A stretch of 53,775 nt of DNA, from assembly GCA_049999805.1 (NCBI GenBank), contig JBNGIO010006293.1, positions 214,166 through 267,940 on the forward strand. The letters run 5' to 3'. Both the position numbers and the translations under genes were made by a program. Within the stretch, counting starts at the first letter, position 1, and every line of letters starts with the position of its first letter. The notes beneath the pieces are model-generated. The model had not been told where the DNA came from and did not search any database. It saw only the letters and a list, made by a program, of their open reading frames with translations. The stretch comes from Folioceros fuciformis. Taxonomy: Eukaryota. Shown one piece after another: positions 3,859 through 53,775 of the stretch.

Positions 3859-6110
3859 CTAAAGTGTCGATGAACTCCAGCTGTCATCCACTGCAGCCAT
3901 GATTTTGCTATGCAGGACCGTCCCAGCACACGCGATAACCCCTCTGTCCAGACCCTCCAAATACCTGCCTCTGGAGAAATCCAATGGACACCCTCTGGCA
4001 TCCGTTACCACACCTCCAGCTTCCTCCACAATCAGAACCCCAGCCGCATGGTCCCAGATTTTTTCCTTGTACCCAACTTTCGCGAACTTCATGAAGATCT
4101 CAGCATCTCCCCGAGCTATAGCTGCATACTTCGCCATGCTATATATTCGCAGCGGCCGGGACCTGTTGGATGTTACCAAGGGAACGGAAGTTATGTCCTC
4201 AATGCAGATGATCTCAAAAGCATTCCAAGAAAAACTTAGGAGGCAATATTCATGCAAGCGACCAGGCTACTTTGCGACGCAACACCACGATAAATTGACC
4301 AGCATTACCTTAGGCCAATACTGCTGGCTACACCTGCCGAGAAATGGTGACTAGAGTTCCCCTTCTCCACAGGCTCACAGAAGGCAGCTTCGGCAGGGTC
4401 TGTGATATTCGAAACATGAATAGGCAGAGGTGATGCATTCTCGAACTGGTTTGTGCCTTCTGAGTTCCACACCAAAGGCTCCATCCAAGCCCCGCCTCCC
4501 CCCTTGGTTGCAGTCATCAGGCAGCCCTTGTGCCACAGGCTTGGTTTAGGAGGTGAAAGTTTGCTCGCAAGTCTGTAGTACTTATGACCATATTTCAGCC
4601 ATTCCCTCCTCATCGGGAAATTTGGACAACCTAAAAGAGCCAGCACAACTTCTCCATCCTGGATCATAGCCAGGGCCACAGCATATTGGTCACCTCGGAC
4701 AAAACCAAGTGTCCCATCTACAGGGTCAAGCACCCAATGACGTCCCTGGGGACCACCTTGAGAACTTCCTCGACTGATCGCTTTCAACACATCTACAGTC
4801 GCAAGGGGAGCCTCAGGGGGTGTAATGCCAACCACTGACGCCTCACTCAAACATTCATTCACTGCAGCCACAACTCGTCGCAGCAAGTGGATCCCATCCA
4901 TTCCTCTCAGATCTTCTGTGTCCTCTTCAGCGACAATGGACAAACGCTCATCTGGAAAAGCTTGCGTAAGCACCCAGCTGATCACTGCCTGCACCCCCCA
5001 GTCTGCTCCAGAAACGAGGCAACCTCACGTGAGTGACAACCCCAGAAGTCTGCATGCAATCATATCAAATGCAAACTGCGACGGATAGATCTTCATGGCA
5101 TATTCTAATCATACCAGAGAGGGAAGCCCACCGTCACTTCTGTTTTACCTCATGGTTGCTGGAAATGGCTACATGCATGCAACAGAACCTCAACTCACGG
5201 GGGTCGCGGGACAAGTTTTCGAGAAAGTACCTGCGATGGTCACAAGCGAGTGATCACTTTTAGCACTTGCCTCCTCCTCATGTCGCAGAAGTCGATCCTG
5301 TATTCTCTGGGTAAGCATGCAAGCCAACTGAACTGCACGTGAGGCCACCTCCAACTCCCTGCCATACTTTCCTGAGTGACTCTTCTGAACCGTGGGTCCA
5401 GTCACCTTGAATTCAGCCATGTTTGCACCTTCCATATTTCCAGCATCTTGCACAGCGTTCAGGTCTGCATGCAATCTGCTATCATGATTGTTCAGCTCCG
5501 ATGAAATTCCCTGACAGCCCTTGTTCTCCAGTACCTTACCAGGCAGAGCCGATATCTCTTCTTCTCCATTTCGGTTCGATTCACCTTGACCATTCACTCT
5601 AACCATGTCTACGGACGAGCCCACACTGTCCCCTTTCTGTTCTCCAGTAGATGAGAGCTCATGCGCGGCTACGTCTTCTGCTGGTGCCAGCTTCACAGAC
5701 AAGTCCGGTAATTCTCCCTTGGATAGATTCACAAATGGTAGGGCCGTCTGCAATGACTGATCATCTCCAGCCCCAATATAGTCTTGAAGCCCGATACTGG
5801 TAGGTCCTTTTCCCTGCAGACTGCAGACGGACAAAGTCCTCCTCTTACCCTGGGAAGCGGCTCCCATTCCACCAACATCGGATAGCCATTGACCATTTGC
5901 AGCACCCGCCTTGCAGAGATTGTACTTGCACTTCACGGCCTCCAGACTGGAGAGATTGACCCCATGAGTCATCTGGGAGACGCTCATCAATCCGAACAGC
6001 GATTTTGGATACAAGCATACGGGGTGCGAGCATGAATGTTGGAAAGCCAACTCTGTGGGTGCTAAGCACGTTAAAGCTGGCGAATGCCGAGAACCGGAAG
6101 TACTCCACAT
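3859..6110 (-). CDS. AHL: PAP-specific 3'(2'),5'-bisphosphate nucleotidase, HAL2-like (AHL clade)
   Basis: Three exons (about 6110-5231, 5002-4309, 4162-3859) with GT-AG borders splice in frame (TIA/DWG, LR/SRPLR). Motifs: KSDHSLVTIADW, AEED, WVLDPVDGTLGFVRGDQYAVALA, EKIWDHAAG. Start codon uncertain. Confidence 0.9.
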
Positions 6111-10757: not shown

Positions 10758-13415
10758 ATGGCGTCCTCCATAGCTCAAGTGAGTGGCGTCAGGTGTGCAA
10801 GCTCGATAGCCTCGCAGTCGACTGCCTCCTCCAGTAGCAACAAGGGGGAGGCATGCCGGGGAATGGCGAATTTTGCTGGCCTCAAGAGCACCACCGGGTT
10901 GCCCCTCGCTTCGTCTCTGGAGAGCATGTCATTGAAGAGGAGGGTGTTGAAGTGTCTGAAGGCAGGAAGGGCGAGCCAGAGAGCGGCTGTGGTCTGTATG
11001 GCAGCTGAGGGTATGGTTTCAGGCTTGGTCTCTATCGTCTGTGCGAGAACGTGGTGCGAAGCGTCTGCGGTTGGATGCGGCTGCCTCTGACCTTTGTTGT
11101 CTTGTTTGTTCAGATAAGCGAGTGGTTCCTTTATCTGACTACCGCAACATAGGTATCATGGCTCACATAGATGCTGGAAAGACCACGACGACAGAGAGGA
11201 TTTTGTTCTACACGGGTAGGAACTACAAGATTGGGGAGGTCCATGAGGGCACTGCCACAATGGACTGGATGGAGCAAGAGCAGGAGAGGGGAATCACTAT
11301 TACTTCTGCTGCCACGACGGCTAAGTGGAACAACCACCGTATCAACATTATCGATACACCAGGGCATGTGGATTTCACTCTTGAAGTTGAGCGAGCTCTG
11401 AGAGTCCTTGATGGAGCTATCTGTCTTTTTGATAGTGTGGCTGGCGTTGAGCCGCAGTCTGAGACCGTGTGGCGTCAGGCGGATAAATATGGCGTTCCTC
11501 GAATCTGCTTTGTGAACAAGATGGACCGACTGGGAGCCAACTTCTTCAGAACCAGGGACATGATCGTGAGCAACCTTGGTGCTGTTCCCTTGGTGTTGCA
11601 GCTTCCTATCGGTGCCGAGGATACTTTCTCTGGAGTAGTGGATCTTGTGACGATGAAAGCCATTGTTTGGAGCGGAGAGGAGCTGGGGGCGAAGTTCGAG
11701 GTGGTTGATATCCCTGAGAACTTGCAGGATCTTGCTGCAGACTACAGGGCTAAGCTGATCGAGACTATCGTTGAGCAGGATGATGCTGCCATGGAATTGT
11801 ACCTAGAGGGAGTGGAGCCATCCCTGGAACAAATTGTGCAGCTCATCAGGAAGGGGACCATCGCCTCTGCCTTCGTACCTGTCCTTTGTGGATCCGCCTT
11901 CAAGAACAAGGGTGTCCAACCTCTGCTGGATGCAGTGGTTTCATACTTGCCGTCACCTTTGGATGTCCCTCCAATTAAGGGATGCGACGTGGATGATCCT
12001 TCTGTTGACGTAGTAAGACTGCCTAGCGACGCTGAACCTTTTTCAGGGCTGGCATTCAAGATTATGAATGATTCGTTTGTTGGTTCCCTTACATTTGTAC
12101 GTGTGTATTCGGGAACGATATCCGCTGGAACCTATGTCGTCAATGCCAACAAAAACAAGAAGGAGAGAGTTGGGAGGTTACTGGAGATGCATGCTAACAG
12201 TCGGGAGGATGTAAAAGTCGCTAGAACAGGAGACATTATTGCCCTTGCTGGTCTGAAGGATACCATCACAGGAGAGACTCTGTGTGACCCAGACAAACAG
12301 GTGATTTTGGAGAGGATGGACTTCCCAGACCCTGTCATAAAGGTTGCCATCGAGCCCAAGACGAAGGCAGATGTTGACAAAATGTCTGCGGGTTTGATCA
12401 AGCTGGCTCAAGAGGATCCCTCCTTCCATTTCTCCAGGGATGAAGAGACTAACCAGACAGTCATTGAGGGCATGGGAGAGCTCCATCTGGAGATCATTGT
12501 GGACAGGCTGAAGAGAGAGTTCAAGGTAAGTTTCAGCACCTTCTGTGTCCTCGTACCACAGAGGACGATCAATACTCAAGATCTGACTTTATTGCTGATT
12601 TTTTGTTGCAGGTGGAGGCCAACGTTGGGGCTCCCCAGGTAAATTACAGGGAGAGTATTGGAAAGCAAGTGGAGGTGAAGTACGTTCACAAAAAGCAGTC
12701 AGGTGGTCAGGGGCAGTTTGCTGAGGTGGTCATCCGATTTGAGCCTCTTGAACCAGGATCTGGGTACGAGTTCAAGAGTGAAATCAAGGGTGGAACAGTG
12801 CCCAAGGAGTATGTTCCTGGTGTGGTGAAGGGATTGGAAGATATGATGAGCAATGGTGTGCTTGCCGGGTATCCTGTGGTGGATGTCCGAGCTGTGCTGG
12901 TGGACGGTTCCTACCACGAGGTCGACTCAAGTGTGTTGGCCTTCCAGCTTGCTGCTCGTGGAGCTTTCAGAGAGGGCGTTTCAAAAGCAAACCCAAGGCT
13001 GTTGGAGCCTGTGATGAAGGTGGAGGTGGTGACCCCGGAAGATAACATGGGTGACGTGATCGGTGATCTCAACTCCAGGCGTGGTCAGATCAACAGCTGC
13101 GGAGACAAGCCCGGTGGCATGAAGGTTTGTTTGTTTGTTTTGTTCTCCTTGGCCCAAACTTTCTGGAGAAATCCAGTCCAGGTCTGGTAACAGTCCTGAT
13201 TTACTGGAAGCTGGATTCTTACTTGCATATTGCTGATTTTCCAGGTGGTTGATGCTTTGGTGCCACTATCGGAGATGTTTCAGTATGTGAGCAATCTCAG
13301 GGGCATGACAAAGGGCCGCGCTTCGTACACAATGCAGCTTGCGCAGTTCGAAGTGGTTCCTCAGCATATTCAGAACCAGATCACTGCCAATGCCAAGACC
13401 GCCTCAGTCGCTTAA
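10758..13415 (+). CDS. EF-G: plastid translation elongation factor G
   Basis: Exons 10758-11010, 11114-12525, 12612-13124, 13245-13415. Ser/Ala-rich transit peptide, then [25 protein letters not shown] and NKMD GTPase motifs and the EF-G domain IV/V sequence. Confidence 0.96.
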
Positions 13416-15656: not shown

Positions 15657-16233
15657 AATGCGGTTTCTTGGACACCGGTGGTTAGTAGGCATTGAAAATG
15701 ATGTTGAAAGGCATTTTTTTATTCCAGATTTTGGGACTTAGTTTTTTGAAAATGATGTTTGAAGGAGCTAATACCCCTTTTGGCATATGACTCTCTTGGA
15801 GTTGTTCCTCCTATCTTTGGAGTAGATGAGACTTTCTGTCTCTTTTTCAATAATAGAAAATACTTCCTAATAGCACCTAAAATATATGGTGTGTAATGAA
15901 AAAAAAAACCATTGGAGTTGCTGATTGTATATGTTTCATAACTACATTCACCTTGTCTTCTATTGCAATCTTATCTCACCAATACAATAAAATGATATTT
16001 TTCAATAAAAATATAGTATTTCTCATTCCAACATATAGTATTACCTTCGAATGAAATCAATATTTTAATTTTTCAATCAAATTTTAAAATAATTATGATA
16101 AATAATTAGGTTTATCATATATAATCCTATTGCTAATGGGACAAGAGTATTATGTACAAGGCTTTGCAAGGGTGACCTACTTGGGGATCTTCTATGGAAG
16201 GAACAATTTTATAAGGTTGGATTTGTAAAGGAT

Positions 16234-24752: not shown

Positions 24753-24826
24753 GCTCCCGTAGCTCAGTTGGCTAGAGCATTGGTCTTATGAGCCAAAGGT
24801 CGCGGGTTCGACCCCCGCCGGGAGCA
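24753..24826 (+). tRNA. tRNA-Ile (anticodon UAU), intronless
   Basis: Acceptor GCTCCCG/CGGGAGC plus discriminator A; D-arm AGCTCAGTTGGCTAGAGC; anticodon stem TTGGT/GCCAA with loop CT-TAT-GA; T-loop GGTTCGA; TTTT shortly downstream. Confidence 0.95.
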
Positions 24827-26979: not shown

Positions 26980-29900
26980 ATGGCGGAAGAGGACCTGGCG
27001 GACGCCCGTAAATCCTCGGTAGACCTGGGGAGCGATCGTTTGACTCGCCTGTTCCAGACTCTGCTGAAGGAGAAGCTTGCGTGCTTCCCGGTGAGCGCTT
27101 GAACGGAGGAAACGACTTCTTGCTCGCTTGTTGAATGTCTGCCAATTTGACGAACCTTGTTTTCGTGCAGCAGGATGAGTTGCCAGCTTCGGACTCTGTG
27201 AAAGCGAACGAAGGGGAAACTTGGAAGTCAGATGGAAAGGGCTTGTCGGATGAAGTGAGTAAAACGTTTGATTGTTCAAGCTGGCTCTCCGTTTCGTCGG
27301 AATGATCTGTAACTGGTTGCGGAAAGAGCATTCTGAGGCAGTGGTGGTGGCGTGACTTATGTGGTAGGAACGCTGTCAAGATGCGGAAACAAGCAGGAAG
27401 GCCCTCAGAGTGGTTGACATATTCTCTGCAGCGTTAGCTCGTCAAGCCGCCGATACAGACTACAGTATCCTTCAATGCTGCGTCTGGCGTCCTCTTGTGG
27501 ACCTCCTCAGACGTCCTCAAGCTATCACTGTATGGCAAGATCTGGTGCTATTGTTCCCCAAGCTGGTACGAGTTGAGGCGTGTACATGGTGAAACTTCTG
27601 TCGCTTCTACTTTTCATCATGGCCTGACGTCTTTTGGTCCTTGTTGCAGCTCGCAAGGCACGCAGGCGACTTACTTGGAAGGAACGCCGATGGCCATATT
27701 CTTTGTGAAATGTTTGGTTGGCTGTTGTTCATAGCAGCTTTGGACGACAGAGATGCTGTGAGGCAGAAGGCTCGGTCCATATTGCGCCTCTTGTTAAAGG
27801 TGGGAAGACCTGGGAAGTTGTTCAATGCTGCAGGTTTCTCGTAATTCTCCTCCTAATGGTGTTTGTTGGCTGAATGCAGAGCGCTTTCACTGAGCATGGA
27901 GGACTTGTGCAAATGAAGGTCATATCCACCATGGCCCTCATGGATATCCTGGAATTCCGTGTGACAACCCAGCAAGCAGACACAAATAGTTGCGACAGCC
28001 ATTCTAGTGCCCACTCTTACAGAAGGTCCAAGTCAGTGTGCACAACTCAGAGCCGAGATTCAAGCTCTTTCGAGTGGAGTGACAGCGAGGCAGAGCTTGA
28101 GCAAAGAACCTTCAACAGGTCCGAGACCTTTGGTAATTTCAGGGATTCGTCGGACTCCGCAGATTGGTCTCCTAGAGCCAAAGTTGACTCTCCCTCTAGA
28201 CAGTTCAAACAGCGGCGTAGAGACAAGGTGGGCAGAAGATCAGGGGACTTTGTGAAGCTTCCATGGAGCGAGGAGCTTGATGTTCTGAAGGGGCCCCTGC
28301 CTCCTAGTGGCAGCTTGCCTTATCTCCGACGGAAATCCAGCGCCTTATCCAGTTTCTGGACTGCGGACTCATTGGAGAGCATTCTGAGCTGTCTCTACCG
28401 TTTGGAGACATTAGAGGCCAACGACGTCTCTGGTTATCATGGGATGGTGGCACTGGATTTGGACGTATTTGGTTGGAAGGAAGCGCTACGGGACTTAGTG
28501 GTAACCCTACAGCACGTTTTCCAAGCTTGGAGTGAGCATCATAAGATGGTAAGATGTGTCTGCACACTCTCAGCATATCGATGACTGATAGTTTTGAGCA
28601 GCTCATTTCTGCAGGATTCATCTCTGGTGTCCCATTTTCTGGTGATCGCCAGCGGCACCCCTGACAATGTTGTCGTGAAATCCCGCTATCTGCAGATTGC
28701 AAGACAGTCCGTAGATAAGATTCTGTTGGCGGAGACCTGTCTAGCTGTATCCAGAGCATGTTTCCATGTCCCAGATCTTAGCATACAATGGCTTCTTCGA
28801 CTCAGCCGACGGTACAAGGAGGACCACGCCGAACTGCACCAGCCAGAAGCTGCGCAATGCCTCGTGGCATGTGCAAGCATTATCATCCAGCACATGATGC
28901 GGTCAAGTGAATGTTCTCTGTGGGGGACGCCACACCTGCGGACGCTACAAAAGATTTGCCCCGACATGGTAATCATCTTTCCGAAGCTTCTGGGTGGTCG
29001 TCTAGAAAGGTTGCCTTCGGTGCCAAGACCCATGTCACAGGAAGGCGGTGCTGCTGGCTTAGGTTCTTTGTCACAGACAGCTGATGTGGACTACGGTCAG
29101 AGCGTTTATTATTCCCTTCTTGGTTTACCACCAATCAGTAACAGCAGGCCTGATGAGCAGAGGCCTCACCTATTGGACTCAGTCTTAGAGGACGACTCCC
29201 TAGATGCGAAAGTTAGAGACAATCTGGCGGATGCACTGATTCAAATCAGCAAAGAGCGGATTAGCGTCGACATGAGTGATAAAGGGTTTGTGGTCACGAA
29301 GGGTGATCTACTGAGCAGGTTCAAGTCAAGGTCGTTGCCAGCAATCAATGGAGGCCGAGCCCATGTGATTGGATCAACTGAAATTAACTTGGATAGAGCT
29401 CTAGAGCATTTGCACGAAGCGAGTGAACTTTTCAGGGAAGCTGGTTTCTTGGAGACGGCAGCTGAGCTGATTGAGCTTACAATACCGGTCTACCAAAATC
29501 GGAAGGCGTACAAAGAGTTGATTAAGTGCCACGCAAAACTGGCTGCCGTATGCAGCTCAGTGTGCTCCCAGGCCGAGGTGTGGGGTGAACCAACGACAGA
29601 TGCAGCCTACTATCGTGTTGGTTTCTTTGGTGATAAATTCGGACCAAGACTGTGCGGAAAGGAATATATCTATCGAGAGGATAGGTCAGTTTGAAAGTCG
29701 CTGCTTCAGAGTTGACCGCCAGCAGTAAGATTGGTAATTAACGTACGATGCACTTTCGTTTGTTTCTTGGCAGGCACACACATCTGTCCGATGTGACGGA
29801 CAAGATAGGGAACTTCTACGAGAGACAATTGGGTGGAACGCAGTTCCTACGTATCATATCTGATCCAAGTCAGATTCAACCTAGTTCCCTCATTCCAGGC

Positions 29901-34500: not shown

Positions 34501-37500
34501 ACTGAGTAGGGTGTGACGCAGCATCATACCTGACCAAGGGAGATGGGAATTCCAGGTGAAGCGGGATAAAATGTCAGCACCACAACTCGAGTCAGGAAAT
34601 CCAGCTCCCCCTCTTGCTCTTCGAAGTTATAGAGCCAACAAGAATCCCTCCCCCCTGTCCCTGCACCAGTTATAGCAACATCCTCTGCACTCCTGGCACC
34701 TGGTAAGATATACAAGAGTTGTGTTCCATTGGCGCATCTTGGGACAGTTGCACCCTGAAATTCAAGGCACAGATGGCGACGTTAAGATCAAATGAACCAG
34801 AGGCTGTCTTGCTCCTGCATGCAATCAGAACTAAACAAACAAAAACTGAGCTAGGCTCACCTCAAGAACAAGCTTCAGGCTATCAAGATGACGACCAGCC
34901 CGGATGTCAAAAGAAGAAGGTGATGTAGAGTCATCTGCTCCATGCCCAACCGTCAGCAACAGCTGAGAAGCATGGCAAGGTTCGGAGAGGAATATATACA
35001 GCTCCACCACTTCCGCTGCTGAAGGGCACACCTATCAACACAAGTCAGAGACAAATGAATATCTGCATGATTCATTTCGGAACATGTGTAATTTCATCGG
35101 GAACAAAGAAGGTCATGTGTGAACCGCTGACGTACATACCCAAACGATGTCCTTGTATTTGGCACTAATGAGAGCATTTTGAGGGGCTGTGTTCGGAAAC
35201 ATGCTCGGGACTGTTTTGAGCAGACATGCATTTGGCCGAGTCAAGGCCTGCAGTGGTAGAGACACCTGTCAAGCTATTTCACGATTTCAAAACATAGTTT
35301 CAGATTTCTTGGCACTGTTTAGTCACGAACCTGCAGAGGTTTGTCTGGCAAACTAGGAAAGTACTTGCTCAACCGCAACCCTAGAAACATTTCAAGTTGC
35401 TTTTGTCGAGTGCTGTCCATGACCACATTCAAAAATCGTCTTTGCAAAGTGATTGCTAAATTTTGTGCTGGTGACAATGTTTTCGCTTTGCCTCCTTCTT
35501 CACTGAATATCTGGATAATATGACTGTGCATGGCTTTGGAGCCTGTGTAAAGAGTAGCATGGATATCACCGGAGATGAGGAACAGTTCAGCCATTCCAGC
35601 TACAGCACTGGGGATGGTAGCCTCCTTAAACTCATCCACAGTCATGTCAAATCGTATCCAAGGTTTATCCATGCTTGACTCCTCTGGACAAGGATGATCC
35701 CAGGTTGTTTTCCTTGTGTTATGATCAATATAGAATGTCCTTCCAGTAACTCCGTCAGTTCGCTTTTCCCAACCTGGAGGAAGGGAAGCCTCTGGTGCTT
35801 CAGTCCTACCATTGATCGAGCCACTTGCAGCAGTAACCTTCCCAGAGTCAAGGGGATAACCTAGCTGCCTGCACTGCTCAGCAAGAACCTGTACAGCACC
35901 AAAGAAGCTGGCTGCATTGGTCCTGTCAAGAGAATCTGCACAGTTGAATCTTATAACTCCGTCCTGCTTCTTCACAGTTCTAAAAGCTCCCCCATAGGCA
36001 CCTCTATTTGGAGTTAACGAACCTGTAAAATCTTTGGGCTGTTGGCCTTTAGCGTAATATTCGCCTAGATCAAATTTTATATCACTTGTTGGGTCTTTGA
36101 GCAGCTGCCACAGCCCCTCCACAGTCTTTGGTTCCCCGATGGCCCTAGTCTTGTCGTGCCAGTCGTAGTCAAGAAGAAAAATTCTTGCATCATCATCCTT
36201 GCGATGCGATCTTGCAAATTTGACGGACTCATGAAAATGCTGCCACAGGACTGCCTCGGGCTTTCCAACTCCGCTCCTCAGAAGATTAATGCAGACTAAT
36301 GGCGGTTGCCTTGACTTGCTAGCCGCCTTTACACCTGAAGCATATCGACGGCTGAGCCTTCTGAAGTATTGAGGGGAACCTTCATAGGTCCTCTTCTCAC
36401 AAACAAAAATTTCAGCTTCCGCAATGTTGGACTTGATCTCAGCCCCCCACCACAAAGGGACCGTTCCTCGCCGCCAGAGGTACATAGCGAAAGGAACTGG
36501 CAGTCCTGAAGTAACATGAGGCCAAACCAGCTGCTCACACTCAACTTCATTCCCTGCAAATTAAGATCGGACCAGAGAAAGAGTAGCCCGCAGCTTCAGT
36601 CATGGGGATGTTTCAGAGTGATTGGTAAGAATGGTTAGATACTTTAGGCAATCAAACCTGTGCTGAAAGCTCCATTCATGCCCCGAGCCAGGTACCTCGT
36701 TCCAGCATGCAAACGGCTTCGTCTGGCCGTAAGAGCTACGGTTAACTGCTCACCATCAAGAGTTGAGAATGTGCGACTATCTGCAAGCCCCTGCACCAAA
36801 AAGCTTCGAATCAGACGATACCTTGCTTTTCAAAGATTCAGATGCCGTCTGTTGAGCTGTTATGACAGGCAACCACCCGAGAGTTTACATGTACCTGCAA
36901 AAGAACCACACAGTGCCGGGGCAAACCAATCGCCTTAAAAGGAGATGATAACCAGGAGTTCCAGGCAAACTCCTCGTCTGGAGACTGAACGGAACTGGGA
37001 CTAGGGAACGGCCGAGTGATGTCCCTTGTCTCACAGAAGAAATGGACGTTGTCAATGTCAATGCCCGCGAAATCGGATGCATTCTTCGCCTCCCCTTTCA
37101 GCAGAGGCTGCGGATTTCTGAGAGGAATTTTTACCCACTTGCTTTCGACAACCGTTTGAACAGAATCACCGCCCGGAAGAAAAGAAATGGATGTCCGTAG
37201 CCTGATAGCGACGAGCAGGAGGCCCACGCTTCCGAGCACAGCATAGCCAAGAATTGCTTTCCCATACCAAGTGCTCTTGGGAATCCAACGCGAGTTGCCT
37301 GTCACAAACTGCAGAGCCTCCGCCTCTGTCGGAAATACATCCACCCCTGGCCGACCAGAATAGCAGAGTGCGCCTGTCGTCGGATCGACCCCGATAACCT
37401 GTGTTTCGCGCTGCCCGGAGAGGCTCGTGATGACAAAGAACTCCCCTGACTCCAACTCCACCACAACCACTGTCGTCTCTGCTCCATCACCGTGGATCCA

Positions 37501-40847: not shown

Positions 40848-41608
40848 GCTTTTGTGTCATCTCTAGTCGTTTCGACAGCTGAGGTCCTGACGGCCTGCCT
40901 CACTCCTGGTTTGGATAGGGACGCAGTAACTTGTTGTTGCGGCCTGTGTGAGGCTGCGGCTGGCAGAGAGGCGGAGTCCCGAGTGATATCTTCTATCAGT
41001 TAGCTTTATGGCTTAGATTTGATCAGCTGGAGGAAGGGAAGAGGATCATCTGCGTCTCAAGAGACTCTTCTTCTGGCGTCCGATACGGACTGTGGAGAGT
41101 TCAGGATTCTTGTGTAGTTCGGGAGGATCATTCTTGTTGTAGCAAGCGTGTGTTTTTGTACTTAAGTTGTCGTGTAACCTCGGTAAAGTTTCGCATTTAT
41201 CGACGATCTCATCCGGATGTGCTCTTCTGGAGAACTTTAGAACGCGGTCCTTTTCATGCTGACTGGTCGCGCACGTAGCGCACCTCGTCATAGAAATCTT
41301 GGGGAGATCGAAGAACGCTCGCAAAGCGGTATGCAAGCTGATCCTTTCTGCGAACCTTCTTGCGATGAAGTTTACCCTGTCATCTCATTTAAGACGGAGT
41401 AAATTGGATGCTTGGGCACTGGAGGAAGAGAAAGCTTGGGAGCCCGGTGAGAGATGCGTGCTACGAACCTTGGTAAGCAGAGTATGCGAGTGTTCTTCTC
41501 CGTTAGCGGACGACAACATGGACAGCGTGATTGGCTTAACCAGCCCAACTGGCGCTCCGGATCTGGGTCTCGTTGGGTTCAGAGCTTCAGGCTGTAGATG
41601 CGGAAGGC

Positions 41609-44600
41609 ATGAGTGTTGCGCTTCAGCTGAAGAGTGGGCGACAGGGCCTCCTGTGGAGACAGAGGAATTTTGGTGGGATGTCGGACATCAAATTCATGGC
41701 TGAAGGACACCTATGGGGGGTGACGGATGAATCTGTGAGCCAGCTATGTCAGCAGGGGCAGCTTGCTGAAGCTGTGGAGGCTCTGGGAGTTCTGGTGCAG
41801 ACAAATTGTGGTGTTGCTCAGTCTGTATTTCGTGCAGTTATCAAAAAGTGTGAGATTCAGAGGAATCTGGTTGTGGGTCGCCTTGTCCATGCTCTTGTAG
41901 TGATGAAGGGGTATGAGTCGGACACGTTCTTGTGCAACCACATCATACGAATGTATGCTTCTCATGCCAGGTTGGCTGAAACGATGGATGTGATCTCTGT
42001 GGCTGCCAAGCCGGATGCCTTCATGTGGTCTTCCGTGATCTCTGCCCATGTTAACCACGGACAGGCTGAGCGGGCAGTACAGCTGTATCAGCAGATGCGA
42101 AGGTCAGGTGTGAAGCTGGATGGCCATGTGTTTGTGGCAGCCCTTCAGGCCTGTGCCAGGGGAGCAGACTTGAGTAGCGGGCAGCAGGTGCATGCTGATG
42201 TGTTGGCCAGTGGCTTGGAACCTAGTTTGTTCGTCTCTAATGCCCTGGTGGACATGTATGCAAAGTGTGGCAGCTTGGAGGATGCTCAGAGGGTGTTTGA
42301 TGGACTCGGTCGAAAAGACGTGGTGACCTGGACCTCGTTGATAGCAGGGTATGCGCAGCATGGCATGGGCCTCGAAGCTCTCTGTGTGTTCTGGGCTATG
42401 CAAGATGAAGGGATGGCTGCGCCGGATTCTGCCACGTTTGTGTGCCTCTTGCAGGCATGTGCAAGTTTGGGCACACCCGCTTTGGAGCACGTCAAGCAGC
42501 TTCATCAGAAAATTAGGGAACGAGGCCTGCAAGCCGATGTGTTCGTAGCCAGCAGTTTGGTGAACATGTACACGAAATGTGGCAGACTGGAGGATGCTCG
42601 AAGTGTGTTTGATGGACTTGGCCACAAAAATGTTGTCACTTGGAATGCTTTGATAGCAGGGTACTCCCAGCAAGGCATGGGCCAGGAAGCCCTTCATCTT
42701 CACAATGCTATGCAACAAGAAGGCGCTGTGGTACCTGATTCTGTGACTTTTCTGTGCCTTCTGCAGGCGTGTGCAAGTGTGGGCACCTCGGCTTTGGGCA
42801 AGGGGAAGCAGCTTCATTCGCAAATCAGAGAACGGGGGCTTGAGGCCGGTGTGCGTATGGCCAGTAGTCTGATAAACATGTACGCAAAGTGCGGCAGCCT
42901 GGAGGATGCTCGGGACGTATTTGATGGAGTTGGTCAAAAAAATGTGGTGGTATGGAATGCCATGATGGGTGGATATTCCCAGCAGGGCATGGGCCAGGAA
43001 GCCCTTGCTCTTTACTGGGTTATGCAAGAAGAAGGTGTTGTGGCGCCTGATGCTGTGACATTCGTGGGCCTACTCCAGGCGTGTGCGATGGAGGGCTCCC
43101 CAGCTTTGGAAACCGGGAAGCAGCTTCATGCACGGATTGTAGACGGAGGGTTCGAAGCCGACGTTTTCCTAGCTAACAGTTTGGTAAACATGTACTTGAG
43201 GTGTGGCAGCTTGGAAGATGCTCAGAGTGTGTTTAACGGACTTGGTCGAAAAAATGTGGTAACCTGGAATGCCATGATAGCAGGATACTCCCACCAGGGA
43301 ATGGGTCAGGAGTCCCTTAACCTTCACAGTGCTATGCAGGAAGATGGCAAGACCGCTCCTGATTCTGTCACGTTTCTATGCCTCCTGCAGGCGTGTGCAA
43401 GCGTGGGGACAGCAGCTTTGGAGAAGGGGAAGCAGCTCCATTCACAGATAAGAAACGGAGGACTTATGACCGATGTGTGTTTAGCCAACACCCTGGTGCA
43501 CATGTACGCAAAGTGTGGCAGCCTAGAAGACGCTCAAGGCATATTTGACGGACTCAGTCAGAAGTGTGTGGGAACGTGGGCCTCCCTGATAGCAGGATAT
43601 GCCCGGCAGGGCTTGGGCCAGGAAGCCCTTAGCCTTCACTCTTCTATGCAACAAGAAGGCATCGCAGCATCGGATTCTGCGACAATTCTATCCCTTCTAC
43701 GGGCATGTGCAAGTGTGGGCACTTCTGCTTTGGGGACTGGAAGGCAGCTTCATGCGCAAATCAGAGAACAAGGAGTGGGTACTGATGTCGTTTTAGCCAG
43801 CAGTTTGGTAAACATGTATGCGAAATGTGGCAGCCTAGAAGATGCTCAGAGCGTGTTCGACGGCCTTGGCGAAAAAAATGTGGTGACCTGGAGTGCCATG
43901 ATCGCTGGATATTCCCAGCAGGGCAGGGGCCGGGAAGCCCTTCGGCTCTATGAAGCTATGCAAGAAGAGGGTATCGTTCCACCTAATTCTGTGACCTATG
44001 TTTGCCTCCTGCAGGCATGTACAAGTTTGGGCACCATGGGATTGGAGATGGGAAAGCAGCTCCACACACAATCTACAGAACAAGGACTTGAAGCTGATGT
44101 GTTTCTAGCCAGCAGTTTGGTAACCATGTATGCAAAGTGCGGCACCCTAGAGGATGCTCGGGCCGTCTTTGATGGGCTTCCCCTCAAAGATGTAGGGACG
44201 TGGAATGCCATGATTGCAGGGTATTCCCAGCAGGGGATGGGGCAGGAGGCTCTCCGTCTTTACAGTGTTATGCAAAACGAGGGCATTGTGGCACCCGATT
44301 CTCTGACGTTTGTGTGCCTCGTGCAGGCATGTGCAAATGTCGCAGCCCTACACCTGGGCAGACGGCTACATGCACAGATCGAGGAACAAGGGCTTCACAC
44401 TGACGTGCTCGTAGCTGGCAGTTTGATCAACATGTATGGAAAGTCCGGTAGCATGGTTGACGCACAACAGGTGTTTGAGGCATTGCCAGGAAGGGATGAT
44501 GTTGCCTGCAATGCCCTGATTGCAGGCTACACACGTCACGGAGACAGTGAAATGGTCTTCGACTTGTTCGAGAGAATGAGAAGGGATGGCATACAGCCAA

Positions 44601-45145
44601 CTGCCATGACATTCCTCAGTCTTCTAACAGTATGCAATCACGTGGGTCTTGTCAGCAAGGGGCGGGAGTACTTCCAGGCTATGAGTGGAGAACATGACAT
44701 CGACCCCAGTGTGGAGCACTACACCTGCATGGTGGACCTCCTGGGTCGTGCAGGCCACTTGGACGAGGCACTAGCCTTCATCAAAACCATCCCTGTCCTG
44801 CCCAGTGCTGCAATTTGGCATGCCCTGCTAGGTGCTTGTCAGAAGTGGAACAGCGTAGAGATAGGACACCATGCTTTCCATCAAGCAGTGAAGCTGGACC
44901 AGAAGGATGCCTCCGCATATGTGTTGATGTCAAACATATACACCGGCGCCCAGATGTGGGAGCAGGCGCAGGAGATGCAGGCAAGGAGGAAAAGAATTGG
45001 CGCATGGAAGCAGCCAGGGCAGAGCTGGTGGACAGACCTCGACGGACTAGTGCATAGTTTCTTCGTTGGAGATGCCAGGCATCCCGAAAACGCAGTGTAC
45101 TCCAACAACTTGCTTCCAGAAGGAAGGACTTGGCTTATTATCTGA
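41609..45145 (+). CDS. PLS-class pentatricopeptide repeat protein, E1-E2-E+ (truncated WW-type DYW), putative organellar RNA editing factor
   Basis: About 28 PPR motifs in P-L-S triplets (312-bp period), terminal P2-L2-S2 (VEHYTCMVDLLGRAG), E1 (AIWHALLGAC), E2 (SAYVLMSNIY), then KQPGQSWWTD...HSFFVGD..HP. No HxE/CxxC/DYW follows. Start uncertain. Confidence 0.93.
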   Translation: MSVALQLKSGRQGLLWRQRNFGGMSDIKFMAEGHLWGVTDESVSQLCQQGQLAEAVEALGVLVQTNCGVAQSVFRAVIKKCEIQRNLVVGRLVHALVVMKGYESDTFLCNHIIRMYASHARLAETMDVISVAAKPDAFMWSSVISAHVNHGQAERAVQLYQQMRRSGVKLDGHVFVAALQACARGADLSSGQQVHADVLASGLEPSLFVSNALVDMYAKCGSLEDAQRVFDGLGRKDVVTWTSLIAGYAQHGMGLEALCVFWAMQDEGMAAPDSATFVCLLQACASLGTPALEHVKQLHQKIRERGLQADVFVASSLVNMYTKCGRLEDARSVFDGLGHKNVVTWNALIAGYSQQGMGQEALHLHNAMQQEGAVVPDSVTFLCLLQACASVGTSALGKGKQLHSQIRERGLEAGVRMASSLINMYAKCGSLEDARDVFDGVGQKNVVVWNAMMGGYSQQGMGQEALALYWVMQEEGVVAPDAVTFVGLLQACAMEGSPALETGKQLHARIVDGGFEADVFLANSLVNMYLRCGSLEDAQSVFNGLGRKNVVTWNAMIAGYSHQGMGQESLNLHSAMQEDGKTAPDSVTFLCLLQACASVGTAALEKGKQLHSQIRNGGLMTDVCLANTLVHMYAKCGSLEDAQGIFDGLSQKCVGTWASLIAGYARQGLGQEALSLHSSMQQEGIAASDSATILSLLRACASVGTSALGTGRQLHAQIREQGVGTDVVLASSLVNMYAKCGSLEDAQSVFDGLGEKNVVTWSAMIAGYSQQGRGREALRLYEAMQEEGIVPPNSVTYVCLLQACTSLGTMGLEMGKQLHTQSTEQGLEADVFLASSLVTMYAKCGTLEDARAVFDGLPLKDVGTWNAMIAGYSQQGMGQEALRLYSVMQNEGIVAPDSLTFVCLVQACANVAALHLGRRLHAQIEEQGLHTDVLVAGSLINMYGKSGSMVDAQQVFEALPGRDDVACNALIAGYTRHGDSEMVFDLFERMRRDGIQPTAMTFLSLLTVCNHVGLVSKGREYFQAMSGEHDIDPSVEHYTCMVDLLGRAGHLDEALAFIKTIPVLPSAAIWHALLGACQKWNSVEIGHHAFHQAVKLDQKDASAYVLMSNIYTGAQMWEQAQEMQARRKRIGAWKQPGQSWWTDLDGLVHSFFVGDARHPENAVYSNNLLPEGRTWLII

Positions 45146-51755: not shown

Positions 51756-52550
51756 GCCGCCTTCCTACAGTCCAGCGTCCAGCATTCTTTTGTTCAAGAC
51801 CGCTGGGTTGCTTGGCTGTGGTGTGTCTTGTCCCCGAGTGCTGGACGTCTCTGATCTTGTAAACTCTCCTCTCTTATCTTTCATTTATCACGCCTTCGGT
51901 CTGTTTACCGTAGTCTCCATGTTTAACGGTAGTGGTACTGTATTTAACAAGCTCAAACTACCCGGAGATAACATTAGATACAGTCTTCCGTTATCACCTA
52001 TTGTTGTAGTGGCGCCTTCGCTGTCAGTGTACGTTGCATAGACTGTGTTTTTCGTTAAAGAAACATTTGTAATTATTTTTATTCAATATTTTTATTTTAT
52101 TTTATTTTAAAATTCGAAGACCCATACTAAGCCTTTTTATATTAAGAAAAGTTATTTTATATTATTAAAAATATAAAAAGTCCCATTGACTCCAATGATA
52201 GGAAGAACAAATCAAGCCATGCTAGAAGCCACTAACCTCTTCAAACATCATTCTCAAAACTATTTATTGCTCCCCTAATGTCATGATGCAAAATAACAAA
52301 AAGCTTATCTACACCTATGCCAAAGAAGTCAGTCACTTGCCTAGCACTTGTTGTTGTTCTAAAGACGACATGTAGGAAGAGCCAAGTTGGTCTCCTCCTC
52401 TCTTATATTTTGGTCTTCTCTCAAACTAAAGACAACATGTAGGAAGAGCCAAGTTGGTCTCCTCGTCTTTTATATTTTGGCCTTCTCTGAAAAGCAGGTA
52501 TCTAATTTTTTTTTCATGGAAGAAAGTTTAGATTATGATAACTTACATTG

Positions 52551-52665
52551 TTCACAAGATTATAAAATGTGTAAGCTTACGTTCACAAGATTATAAAATG
52601 TGTAAGCNNNNNNNNNNTATAAAATGTGTAAGCTTACGTTCACAAGATTATAAAATGTGTAAGCA
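52551..52665. repeat. 31-bp tandem repeat spanning an N gap
   Basis: ttcacaagattataaaatgtgtaagcttacg is repeated; Ns at about 52608-52617. Confidence 0.85.
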
Positions 52666-52914
52666 ATCGACTTGGACCTTTGAGAAAGGCATTCTCATGT
52701 CTGATGGTCTTATTCATGAGTAACCAACACATTATTGACAAAGGAAATTACAAAAGATTTACGAACCAACACTTAGAATACTTTAATTTTACATAAATTC
52801 CTTAATTACTCAACTTAATATTTAAATATATTTATTAGTAATAATCATAATTACAAATCATGCAAAGGTCCATTTTCTCCCTCATCAACTTATCTTGATA
52901 ATTACATATATTTA

Positions 52915-53775
52915 TTAATAAATAATATGAATAGAAAAATCAGGAATAGATCCCGTAGGAAAATCATTGTGAGAGAGCGATACTTGAATACCATGTGGAT
53001 TGTTCTCTTCGGGTGTATTAAACTCTTCGGGGTTGATAAGCTCGAACAATTTCTCTTCGATTGGTTCTTGCTCCTCAAGGCCTGGTTGTCCCTTAAAGTG
53101 TGCTTGTGGATTCTCTTGTCTTCCTTGTTCTTGTGGTGGATTCTCTTGTCTTCCTTGTTCTTGTGGTGCATTCTCTTGTCTTCCTTGTTCTTGTGATCGA
53201 CGTTCGGCAAACCAAGCATTGATTTGAGATTCTGCCAAACGTAGAGATGTCGCTAGAGTTTGTATAGTGCTCATGGAAGGGTAGTTATTCTTAGCAAAAG
53301 ACCTCTCTAAGGAATTGTTAACATTTTCACAAATTTCTTCCCAATTTGCAAGTTCATCTTCCCGTGCATATAAGTCATCGTCGCTTGTCTCCTCTTCATA
53401 TTGGCCCTCTTCGCTTGGCTTCTCTTCATATTGGCCCTCCTTGAGGCCTGGTTGTCCCTCAACGTGTGCTTGTGGATTCTCTTGTCTTCCTTGTTCGTGT
53501 GGTGGACTCTGTTGTCTTCCTTGTTCTTGTGATCGACGTTCAGCAAACCAAGCATTGATTTGAGATTCTGCCAAACGTAGGGATGTCGCTAGAGTTTGTA
53601 TAGTGTTCATGGAAGGATAGTTATTCTTAGCAAAAGACCTCTCTAAGGAATTGTTAACATTTTCACAAATTTCTTCCCAATTTGCAAATTCATCTTCCCG
53701 TGAATATAAGCCATCGTCGCTTGCCTCCTCTTCATATTGGCCCTCCTCGCTTGCCTCCTCTTCATATTGGCCCTC
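52915..53775 (-). CDS. partial ORF of tandem atypical homeodomain repeats (5' end outside window)
   Basis: The frame is open from the window edge to the stop at 52915 (287 codons). It has two near-identical 112-aa units, each with LERSFAKNNYPS..TIQTLATSLRLAESQINAWFAERR, which matches homeodomain helices 1-3. Confidence 0.72.
   Translation of the reverse strand, partial: EGQYEEEASEEGQYEEEASDDGLYSREDEFANWEEICENVNNSLERSFAKNNYPSMNTIQTLATSLRLAESQINAWFAERRSQEQGRQQSPPHEQGRQENPQAHVEGQPGLKEGQYEEKPSEEGQYEEETSDDDLYAREDELANWEEICENVNNSLERSFAKNNYPSMSTIQTLATSLRLAESQINAWFAERRSQEQGRQENAPQEQGRQENPPQEQGRQENPQAHFKGQPGLEEQEPIEEKLFELINPEEFNTPEENNPHGIQVSLSHNDFPTGSIPDFSIHIIY

Follow-up and report, generated by a model that had tools for sequence, protein, structure and literature searches.

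The window analysed here is a stretch of 53,775 nucleotides (nt) from Folioceros fuciformis, and its right end holds an open reading frame (ORF) on the minus strand that encodes two unusual, acidic homeodomains in tandem. The ORF occupies positions 52915-53775. Its 286 codons are uninterrupted and close with a TAA stop at 52915-52917; in the other direction the frame is still open at the last base of the window, 53775, and the 5′ part is cut by the window end. The content of guanine and cytosine (GC) is 0.42 in the ORF, 0.30 in its 3′ flank (52040-52914) and 0.50 in the whole window, with a sharp fall in base composition at 52040. An initial annotation had described an intronless ORF in AT-rich DNA. 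The uninterrupted frame and the AT-rich setting were confirmed, and the word intronless holds for the visible ORF; for the whole gene, with its 5′ part beyond the window, that claim is unsupported. At the ORF's own base composition the stop frequency is 0.062 per codon, which means one stop expected every 16 codons, and the chance that the 174 non-duplicated codons stay open is P ~1.5e-5. An open frame of such length is unlikely to occur by chance. The ORF contains the following features:

52915..53775, minus strand: visible coding sequence, 286 codons and TAA, with a Pfam Homeodomain match at E 2.6e-24

53440..53775, minus strand: Unit A, 336 bp and 112 amino acids (aa), with acidic EGQYEEEASE repeats, homeodomain A and then a linker rich in Gln, Glu and Pro

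53710..53775, minus strand: 30-bp sub-repeat coding for EGQYEEEASE in Unit A, 2.2 copies, cut by the window end

53512..53691, minus strand: homeodomain A, positions 1-60, protein residues 29-88, with the Glu51 codon at 53539-53541

53472-53531, minus strand: counterpart in Unit A of the QEQGRQENPP sub-repeat, 2.0 copies

53074..53439, minus strand: Unit B, 366 bp and 122 aa, laid out as Unit A but with the 30-bp QEQGRQENPP repeat in one more copy

53381-53439, minus strand: counterpart in Unit B of the EGQYEEEASE sub-repeat

53176..53355, minus strand: homeodomain B, positions 1-60, protein residues 141-200, with the Glu51 codon GAA at 53203-53205 and three helices modelled at a predicted local distance difference test (pLDDT) score of ~85

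53106..53195, minus strand: 30-bp sub-repeat coding for QEQGRQENPP in Unit B, 3.0 copies with 98% matches (Tandem Repeats Finder)

52918..53073, minus strand: unique acidic C-terminal tail of 52 aa, without a Pfam family match

Tandem Repeats Finder detected a 336-bp repeat at 53136-53775 (1.9 copies, 95% matches), and in a repeat comparison the 300-nt stretches 53136-53435 and 53472-53771 aligned at 95% identity. The initial annotation had spoken of a multi-homeodomain array of near-identical 112-aa units with a 336-bp period. The period is borne out, but the visible units are two; they make a double homeodomain, whereas an array is not demonstrated. The length of 112 aa applies to Unit A; Unit B has 122 aa and measures 366 bp rather than 336 because it contains three QEQGRQENPP copies rather than two. 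As for the nested sub-repeats, the 30-bp QEQGRQENPP repeat was correctly described, whereas the repeat given as 27 bp (EEGQYEEEA/S) has a period of 30 bp, or 10 aa. All the repeat periods (336, 30 and 30) are multiples of 3 and preserve the frame.

The concern that the duplication might be an assembly artefact is not supported by the contigs. Two DNA runs of one sample yielded contigs in which the variants specific to each unit recur without a mismatch, and the unit junction at 53439/53440 is bridged by X1 record 5 (53322-53493) and X2 record 13 (53322-53572). This sample is possibly the window's own source, and the agreement therefore stands for consistency and not for independent proof. The stretch 53260-53319 is without contig cover and a 31-bp repeat in the 3′ flank is unbridged, but such holes prove nothing. 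This 31-bp tandem repeat contains a 10-N gap (52609-52618) with identical 47-nt copies on both sides, which makes the link of the ORF to the rest of the window credible. In run X1 the summed contig depth is 8-19 over the homeodomain-coding parts versus 9-13 over the flanks (~1 to 2 times), and it reaches 240-486 over the EGQYEEEASE repeat at 53680-53775, a 20- to 40-fold rise. Short contigs with 1-5 mismatches from runs X2-X4 also pile up on this repeat. Summed contig depth is a hint and not a copy number; it hints that homeodomain units beyond these two are few and that many more copies exist of the acidic 30-bp repeat. That the window ends inside the EGQYEEEASE repeat points to an acidic minisatellite, either long or dispersed, at which the assembly may have broken, and a long minisatellite would explain why the sequence ends at 53775. 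One run, presumed to be RNA, yielded only contigs of 31-60 nt on the low-complexity 30-bp repeat and is uninformative either way.

Both units are real homeodomains, as judged by hidden Markov model (HMM), sequence matches and the predicted AlphaFold2 fold, all of which agree with the homeodomain-like units first proposed. The Pfam profile PF00046 matched at E 2.6e-24 and scored 85.2 bits, where the cut-off is 22.9; each unit accounts for one stretch, at profile positions 13-55 of 57. Among solved structures 58 distinct chains were matched at E <= 0.01, and the molecule names listed were all homeobox, POU or Pax. By sequence, DUX4 scored best among the solved structures (E 2.6e-9), and it ranks first because both its domains align and two domain scores are summed. 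With a 34-row alignment, AlphaFold2 modelled helices 1-3 at unit residues 38-50, 56-66 and 70-89 (block pLDDT 85-87), and placed a lower-confidence helix at residues 24-34, where the N-terminal arm should be. The Foldseek matches listed from the PDB were homeodomain or POU/Pit-1 entries; many align over 45-57 columns with a root-mean-square deviation of 0.5-2.2 A, and many reach 0.5-1.0 A over ~50 residues at probability 1.00. Their E-values are weak (>=0.002), as expected given the small size of the domain. A single-sequence AlphaFold2 model of all 286 residues had a mean pLDDT of 42.6 and is uninformative on inter-domain contacts and the tail, and the best score among ESM Atlas features was 0.76, below the level treated as meaningful. 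The hydrophobic core is kept (L16, F20, W48, F49, R53), with 'YP' in the helix 1-2 loop. For numbering we used the distance from F20 to W48, which at 28 residues is the typical spacing of a non-TALE homeodomain of 60 residues.

The three helices, the F20-W48 spacing and the core are thus shared with the typical PF00046 homeodomain, the nearest by sequence being the animal paired-like domains of DUX4, PITX2, OTX2, PAX6 and aristaless. The two domains differ from it in Glu51, Ala50, an acidic arm segment that is predicted to be partly helical, and charge. Helix 3 of both units reads W48, F49, A50, E51, R52, R53 (WFAERR). Positions 1-9 are ELANWEEIC or EFANWEEIC, with an arm charge of -3. Glu at position 51 and the acidic arm, both pointed out in the initial annotation, are therefore present in both units. 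The net charge is -2 for the 60-residue domain and 0 for its helix 3 (positions 42-60), and the usual basic residues at positions 55-58 are absent. As a comparison set we used 525 homeodomains from 148 match proteins, a set that is already biased to divergent domains. Their mean charge is +4.8; a charge of -2 or lower occurs in 32 of the 525 and in 5 of the 224 domains that keep Asn51, and an arm charge of -3 or lower in 4 of the 525. At position 51, Asn is found in 224/525, Asp in 58/525 and Glu in 37/525. The substitution is real, but to call Glu51 unprecedented is an overstatement given these 37 domains and the plant classes PINTOX (N51D) and LD (N51X). What is unusual is the combination: the domain carries Glu51, its arm is acidic and its net charge negative, it is present twice, and relatives were not detected. 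The exact WFAERR motif occurs in three ZHX-like match proteins, P0071, P0099 and P0105. Position 51 has also been made acidic, independently, in the amplified homeodomain array of P0004, a protein of 1335 aa with about ten homeodomains that carry WFQDRR or WFEDRR and acidic linkers rich in Asp and Glu.

In canonical homeodomains adenine is contacted by N51 through two hydrogen bonds and the arm occupies the minor groove (PMC11832328), and DNA binding is reported to be abolished when N51 is mutated (PMC2725295). Neither unit has the Asn51, the basic arm or the net positive domain of a canonical DNA-binding homeodomain. Sequence-specific binding of the TAAT type by the protein itself is unlikely.

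One alternative is a DNA-binding transcription factor with altered specificity, in which the paired domains with Glu51 and Ala50 would read a non-TAAT site and the acidic linkers would form an activation domain. In its favour, W48, F49, R52 and R53 are kept. The best solved match, DUX4, is moreover a DNA-binding double homeodomain whose first domain also departs from WFxNRR, and it shares with the present gene two tandem homeodomains in repeat-rich DNA. However, DUX4 is a basic activator that binds DNA and has N51 in each of its two domains, and its identity to this protein is low. A plant precedent for an internally duplicated homeodomain is maize ZmHox2a, of the PHD-finger class, which we know by the title of the 1998 report by Kirch et al.; it reportedly has two homeodomains that arose by internal duplication and have different target sites. 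By that title both its domains bind DNA, which counts in favour of altered specificity and sets ZmHox2a apart from the present protein as we read it. The charges of the domain and of the arm, rare even among divergent homeodomains, the reported loss of binding upon N51 substitution and the missing basic residues at positions 55-58 all speak against altered specificity, and we consider it distinctly improbable.

We searched for relatives with HMMER among 1.84 billion representative proteins and obtained 162 matches at E <= 0.001. The best 150 of these show 24-44% identity and are mostly multi-homeodomain proteins. The top scores, up to 129 bits, belong to animal or fungal multi-homeodomain proteins with 27-38% identity, and they are this high because many domain scores are summed; no single domain among the best 150 scores above 32 bits, and the best are animal paired-like and ZHX-type domains. 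There was no orthologue among the representatives, where the host lineage is without a close relative, which limits the meaning of 'no homologue'. A word-index protein search returned nothing at E <= 0.001 among proteins of 157-501 aa. Ten matches were looked up by name and came from anaerobic gut fungi, a fish, a marine survey or were unnamed, with no plant protein among the ten. A Pfam scan of 96 of the 150 matches found seven with a ZHX zinc-finger domain and others with C2H2 fingers, POU or HMG boxes; none of the 96 carries a co-domain of the plant classes (PHD, HALZ, START, KNOX, POX, DDT, SAWADEE). Among the papers listed in searches for plant two-homeodomain proteins or new homeobox classes of seed-free plants, none describes anything that resembles this gene.

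The initial annotation stated that the protein fits no plant homeobox class. TALE homeodomains (KNOX, BEL) have three extra residues between helices 1 and 2; here the 28 residues from F20 to W48 leave no loop extension, and there is no KNOX, ELK or POX domain. HD-ZIP I-IV proteins have a leucine zipper immediately after the homeodomain, and in our protein the homeodomain is followed by SQEQGRQENAPQEQGRQENPPQ, with prolines present and without leucine heptads, and with no HALZ or START match. In the SAWADEE class a SAWADEE domain lies downstream of the homeodomain. A DDT domain takes this place in the DDT class, according to a section of Mukherjee et al. (2009). The 86 residues between homeodomain B and the stop are without a Pfam match, so both classes were rejected. 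Mukherjee et al. (2009) also give the NDX class a six-residue insertion between helices 2 and 3 and mark the LD class by W48F combined with N51X. The spacing in our units is typical, without the NDX insertion, and W48 is kept in both.

PINTOX deserves closer comparison, since PINTOX and LD are plant homeodomains in which Asn51 is replaced, as it is here. PINTOX proteins carry N51D, a basic PINTOX domain of ~70 aa directly upstream of the homeodomain and an acidic region, and they owe their name to an interaction with a 14-3-3 protein, as Mukherjee et al. (2009) describe. In the present protein position 51 is Glu, not Asp, and the residues upstream of the homeodomains (28 in A, where the window then ends, and 52 in B) are acidic or Gln-rich. 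PINTOX has a single homeodomain that is conserved from green algae, whereas here there are two and no conserved relative was found. Such conservation in green plants predicts that relatives could be found, and in the HMMER search none of the best 150 matches exceeded 32 bits per domain. WOX and PLINC (ZF-HD) are recognised by homeodomain sequences peculiar to each class and PLINC also by upstream motifs that resemble zinc fingers; no such plant protein name is present among the 58 solved matches, and the sequence upstream of Unit A lies beyond the window. TALE, NDX, LD, PINTOX, HD-ZIP, DDT and SAWADEE are thus ruled out and the statement stands to that extent; the co-domain of the PHD-finger class would lie off the window.

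The protein could be a diverged member of the PHD-finger class (PRHA/HAT3.1/ZmHox type) with an internally duplicated homeodomain and its PHD finger beyond the window. As described in part of Mukherjee et al. (2009), the PHD finger of this class lies several hundred residues upstream of the homeodomain, and it is the sole class whose architecture escapes the check made here. The two homeodomains reported for ZmHox2a, known by title, fit the proposal as well. The matches do not: a PHD finger was present in 0 of the 96 scanned, plant proteins made up 0 of the 10 looked up by name, and the best single-domain scores belong to animal paired-like and ZHX homeodomains. We regard membership of the PHD-finger class as very unlikely.

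According to Mukherjee et al. (2009), plant homeobox genes form 14 classes, and the ancestor that mosses share with vascular plants already had them all. The gene might be the first seen member of a class beyond these 14 that is confined to a poorly sampled seed-free lineage. Such a class would comprise acidic proteins with at least two Glu51 homeodomains of typical length, in which the basic arm has given way to an acidic helix. As decoys or partners, these proteins would modulate the canonical homeodomain factors. We think this quite unlikely.

Outside plants, there is a parallel with the chordate ZHX and Homez family. These proteins have C2H2 zinc fingers of the ZHX type and four or five homeodomains. 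They resemble the present protein in having several homeodomains per protein, in WFAERR (P0071, P0099, P0105) and in a low charge of +1 to +3, and P0071 has a ZHX zinc-finger domain as well as WFAERR. They differ in that the visible part of our protein is without zinc fingers; identity is ~30% and the best single-domain score is 31.5 bits. Membership was rejected, as the host is a plant and the motif and the low charge alone are held in common. The ZHX family is chordate-specific (PMC7144352, in part), and the likeness to ZHX is therefore convergent and not due to common ancestry. Two observations on this family are useful for the interpretation below. In the crystal, the second homeodomain of ZHX2 (HD2) forms a homodimer in which the DNA site is disrupted (PMC2893186, in part), and a passage by the authors who studied ZHX evolution proposes that extra copies may free homeodomains for new functions (PMC7144352).

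Comparison of Unit A with Unit B revealed different substitution patterns in core and linkers. In the core (55 codons) there are 3 synonymous changes and 1 non-synonymous change, with a ratio of non-synonymous to synonymous divergence (dN/dS) of 0.08 at a synonymous divergence (dS) of 0.09. In the linkers (46 comparable codons) 1 synonymous and 10 non-synonymous changes give a dN/dS of 2.25, and the contrast between the two has a one-sided Fisher p of 0.033. This suggests that the homeodomain fold has been under constraint since the duplication; small as the counts are, such a contrast is to be expected if the fold is maintained and the linkers vary freely. With a core synonymous divergence of ~0.09 the duplication is not very recent, and 'recently amplified', as the initial annotation had it, is not supported.

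The ORF may also be a non-functional relic or never expressed, for example a fragment of a homeobox gene that drifts in AT-rich, repeat-rich DNA and has not yet been stopped. Base composition points in this direction, as GC content at third codon positions (GC3) is 0.31 in the homeodomain ORF, compared with 0.30 for GC in the flanking non-coding DNA and 0.45-0.56 for GC3 in six neighbouring coding ORFs. A relic would likewise account for the lack of relatives among the 1.84 billion representatives, the loss of nearly invariant DNA-contact residues, the linker dN/dS of 2.25, the tandem and dispersed repeats that flank the ORF, and its place at the window end. On the other hand, all 286 codons are open, with the low P value given above for the 174 non-duplicated codons alone, every repeat period preserves the frame, and the core is confidently modelled as a homeodomain. 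In addition, the low core dN/dS at this dS indicates that both copies kept the fold after they diverged. On balance we judge a relic unlikely, although it is an alternative to be taken seriously.

Four things are established: these are homeodomains, they were duplicated, their DNA-contact residues were substituted, and no close relative is present among the proteins searched. The account that we favour, with confidence and doubt in about equal measure, is that the ORF is the C-terminal part of a land-plant gene, restricted to its lineage, whose acidic double-homeodomain protein works by protein contacts and not by canonical DNA binding. An internal in-frame duplication of 336 bp created the homeodomain pair, which is joined by fast-changing minisatellite linkers rich in Glu, Gln and Pro. 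The three-helix fold is kept, and the basic arm, Asn51 and the basic residues after position 53 are replaced. Since the elements that hold DNA in canonical homeodomains are replaced while the fold is kept, protein contacts would be the most likely mode of action, and the ZHX2 HD2 homodimer with its disrupted DNA site provides a precedent for a protein-contact homeodomain. The visible protein has 62 Asp and Glu residues versus 21 Lys and Arg, a net charge of -41 over 286 residues. It might titrate homeodomain or other nuclear proteins or partner with them, or it might supply them with an acidic region that resembles an activation domain. The 'non-DNA-binding decoy' of the initial annotation is a reasonable inference.

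Several points weigh against this account. The signal of selection consists of 15 substitutions, and gene conversion of the core could mimic it; without orthologues a selection test between species is impossible. Transcription of the ORF is unsupported, and we infer both expression and function of the gene. Its start codon, promoter and 5′ part lie beyond the window, and a GC3 of 0.31 fits a weakly expressed, young or decaying sequence. The protein has no known binding partner, and with W48, F49, R52 and R53 kept, some non-canonical nucleic-acid binding could persist. A lineage-specific double homeodomain with the fold kept and the DNA-contact residues lost would be an exception to the 14-class scheme of plants. 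It would also show how, in nature, a domain for DNA binding can become a module for protein contacts, much as with the ZHX domains of chordates. If expressed, the gene would be a candidate for regulating homeodomain networks in a plant lineage that is little studied; otherwise it would be an ordinary decaying duplicate of little interest.

The initial annotation also considered that the gene could be element-borne. As cargo of a mobile element or of an integrated segment resembling a giant virus, the gene would lie in an insert with the AT-rich island as its edge. The sharp composition drop at 52040 would mark such an edge, GC3 is 0.31 in the ORF against 0.45-0.56 in its neighbours, and the flank contains a dispersed repeat. 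Giant viruses encode homeobox proteins, and 5 of the first 7 fold matches in BFVD are homeobox or homeodomain proteins of the mimivirus group. These fold matches have 16-25% identity and are generic homeodomains, however, and searches of 2.9 million viral contigs and of metagenome contigs gave pattern matches only, none of which was confirmed by tblastn. The visible 1.7 kb is without a transposase, an integrase, terminal inverted repeats or a viral relative. The other AT-rich islands of the window (15-17 kb and 38-39 kb) resemble ordinary non-coding DNA, and the contig depth of the homeodomain parts, as a hint, is similar to that of the flanks. The element-borne origin thus finds no support in the visible part, and we consider it highly unlikely.

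The remaining features of the 3′ flank are as follows:

52040..52914, no strand assigned: AT-rich 3′ flank with GC 0.30, by base composition

52359-52492: 67-bp tandem repeat in two copies

52550-52664: 31-bp tandem repeat in ~4 copies, interrupted by the 10-N gap

A dispersed repeat of ~130 bp is found at about 52150-52260 and again at 15744-15862 in the AT-rich island at 15-17 kb, with ~71% identity and in opposite orientation. It has no convincing terminal inverted repeats. Contig depth is raised at 52131-52371, and several contigs diverge there. A tblastn match in the 15-17 kb island (E 0.6) was dismissed as chance, as there is no homeobox-like ORF within the island.

The rest of the window contains these further features:

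4305-4994, minus strand: exon of an inositol monophosphatase

11041-12642, plus strand: exon of an EF-G-like GTPase

24753-24826, plus strand: transfer RNA gene (Rfam RF00005, 72.1 bits), the window's only Rfam match at gathering thresholds

28594-29694, plus strand: exon with a DOCK DHR-2 domain

35319-36485, minus strand: exon with SacI-homology and WW domains

41573-45145, plus strand: intronless PLS-type pentatricopeptide repeat (PPR) ORF of 1190 aa with an E motif

The four large exons (inositol monophosphatase, EF-G-like, DOCK DHR-2, SacI and WW) belong to ordinary host genes, and their GC3 is 0.45-0.56, versus 0.31 in the homeodomain ORF. The PLS-type PPR gene and the SacI and WW exon mark the window as land-plant DNA. 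In the match list of the PPR protein the highest identity is 54%, to an unnamed protein, and no close relative is present in the protein collection. Among named proteins it is best matched by those of the lycophyte Diphasiastrum (47% identity), and next come ferns and a conifer.

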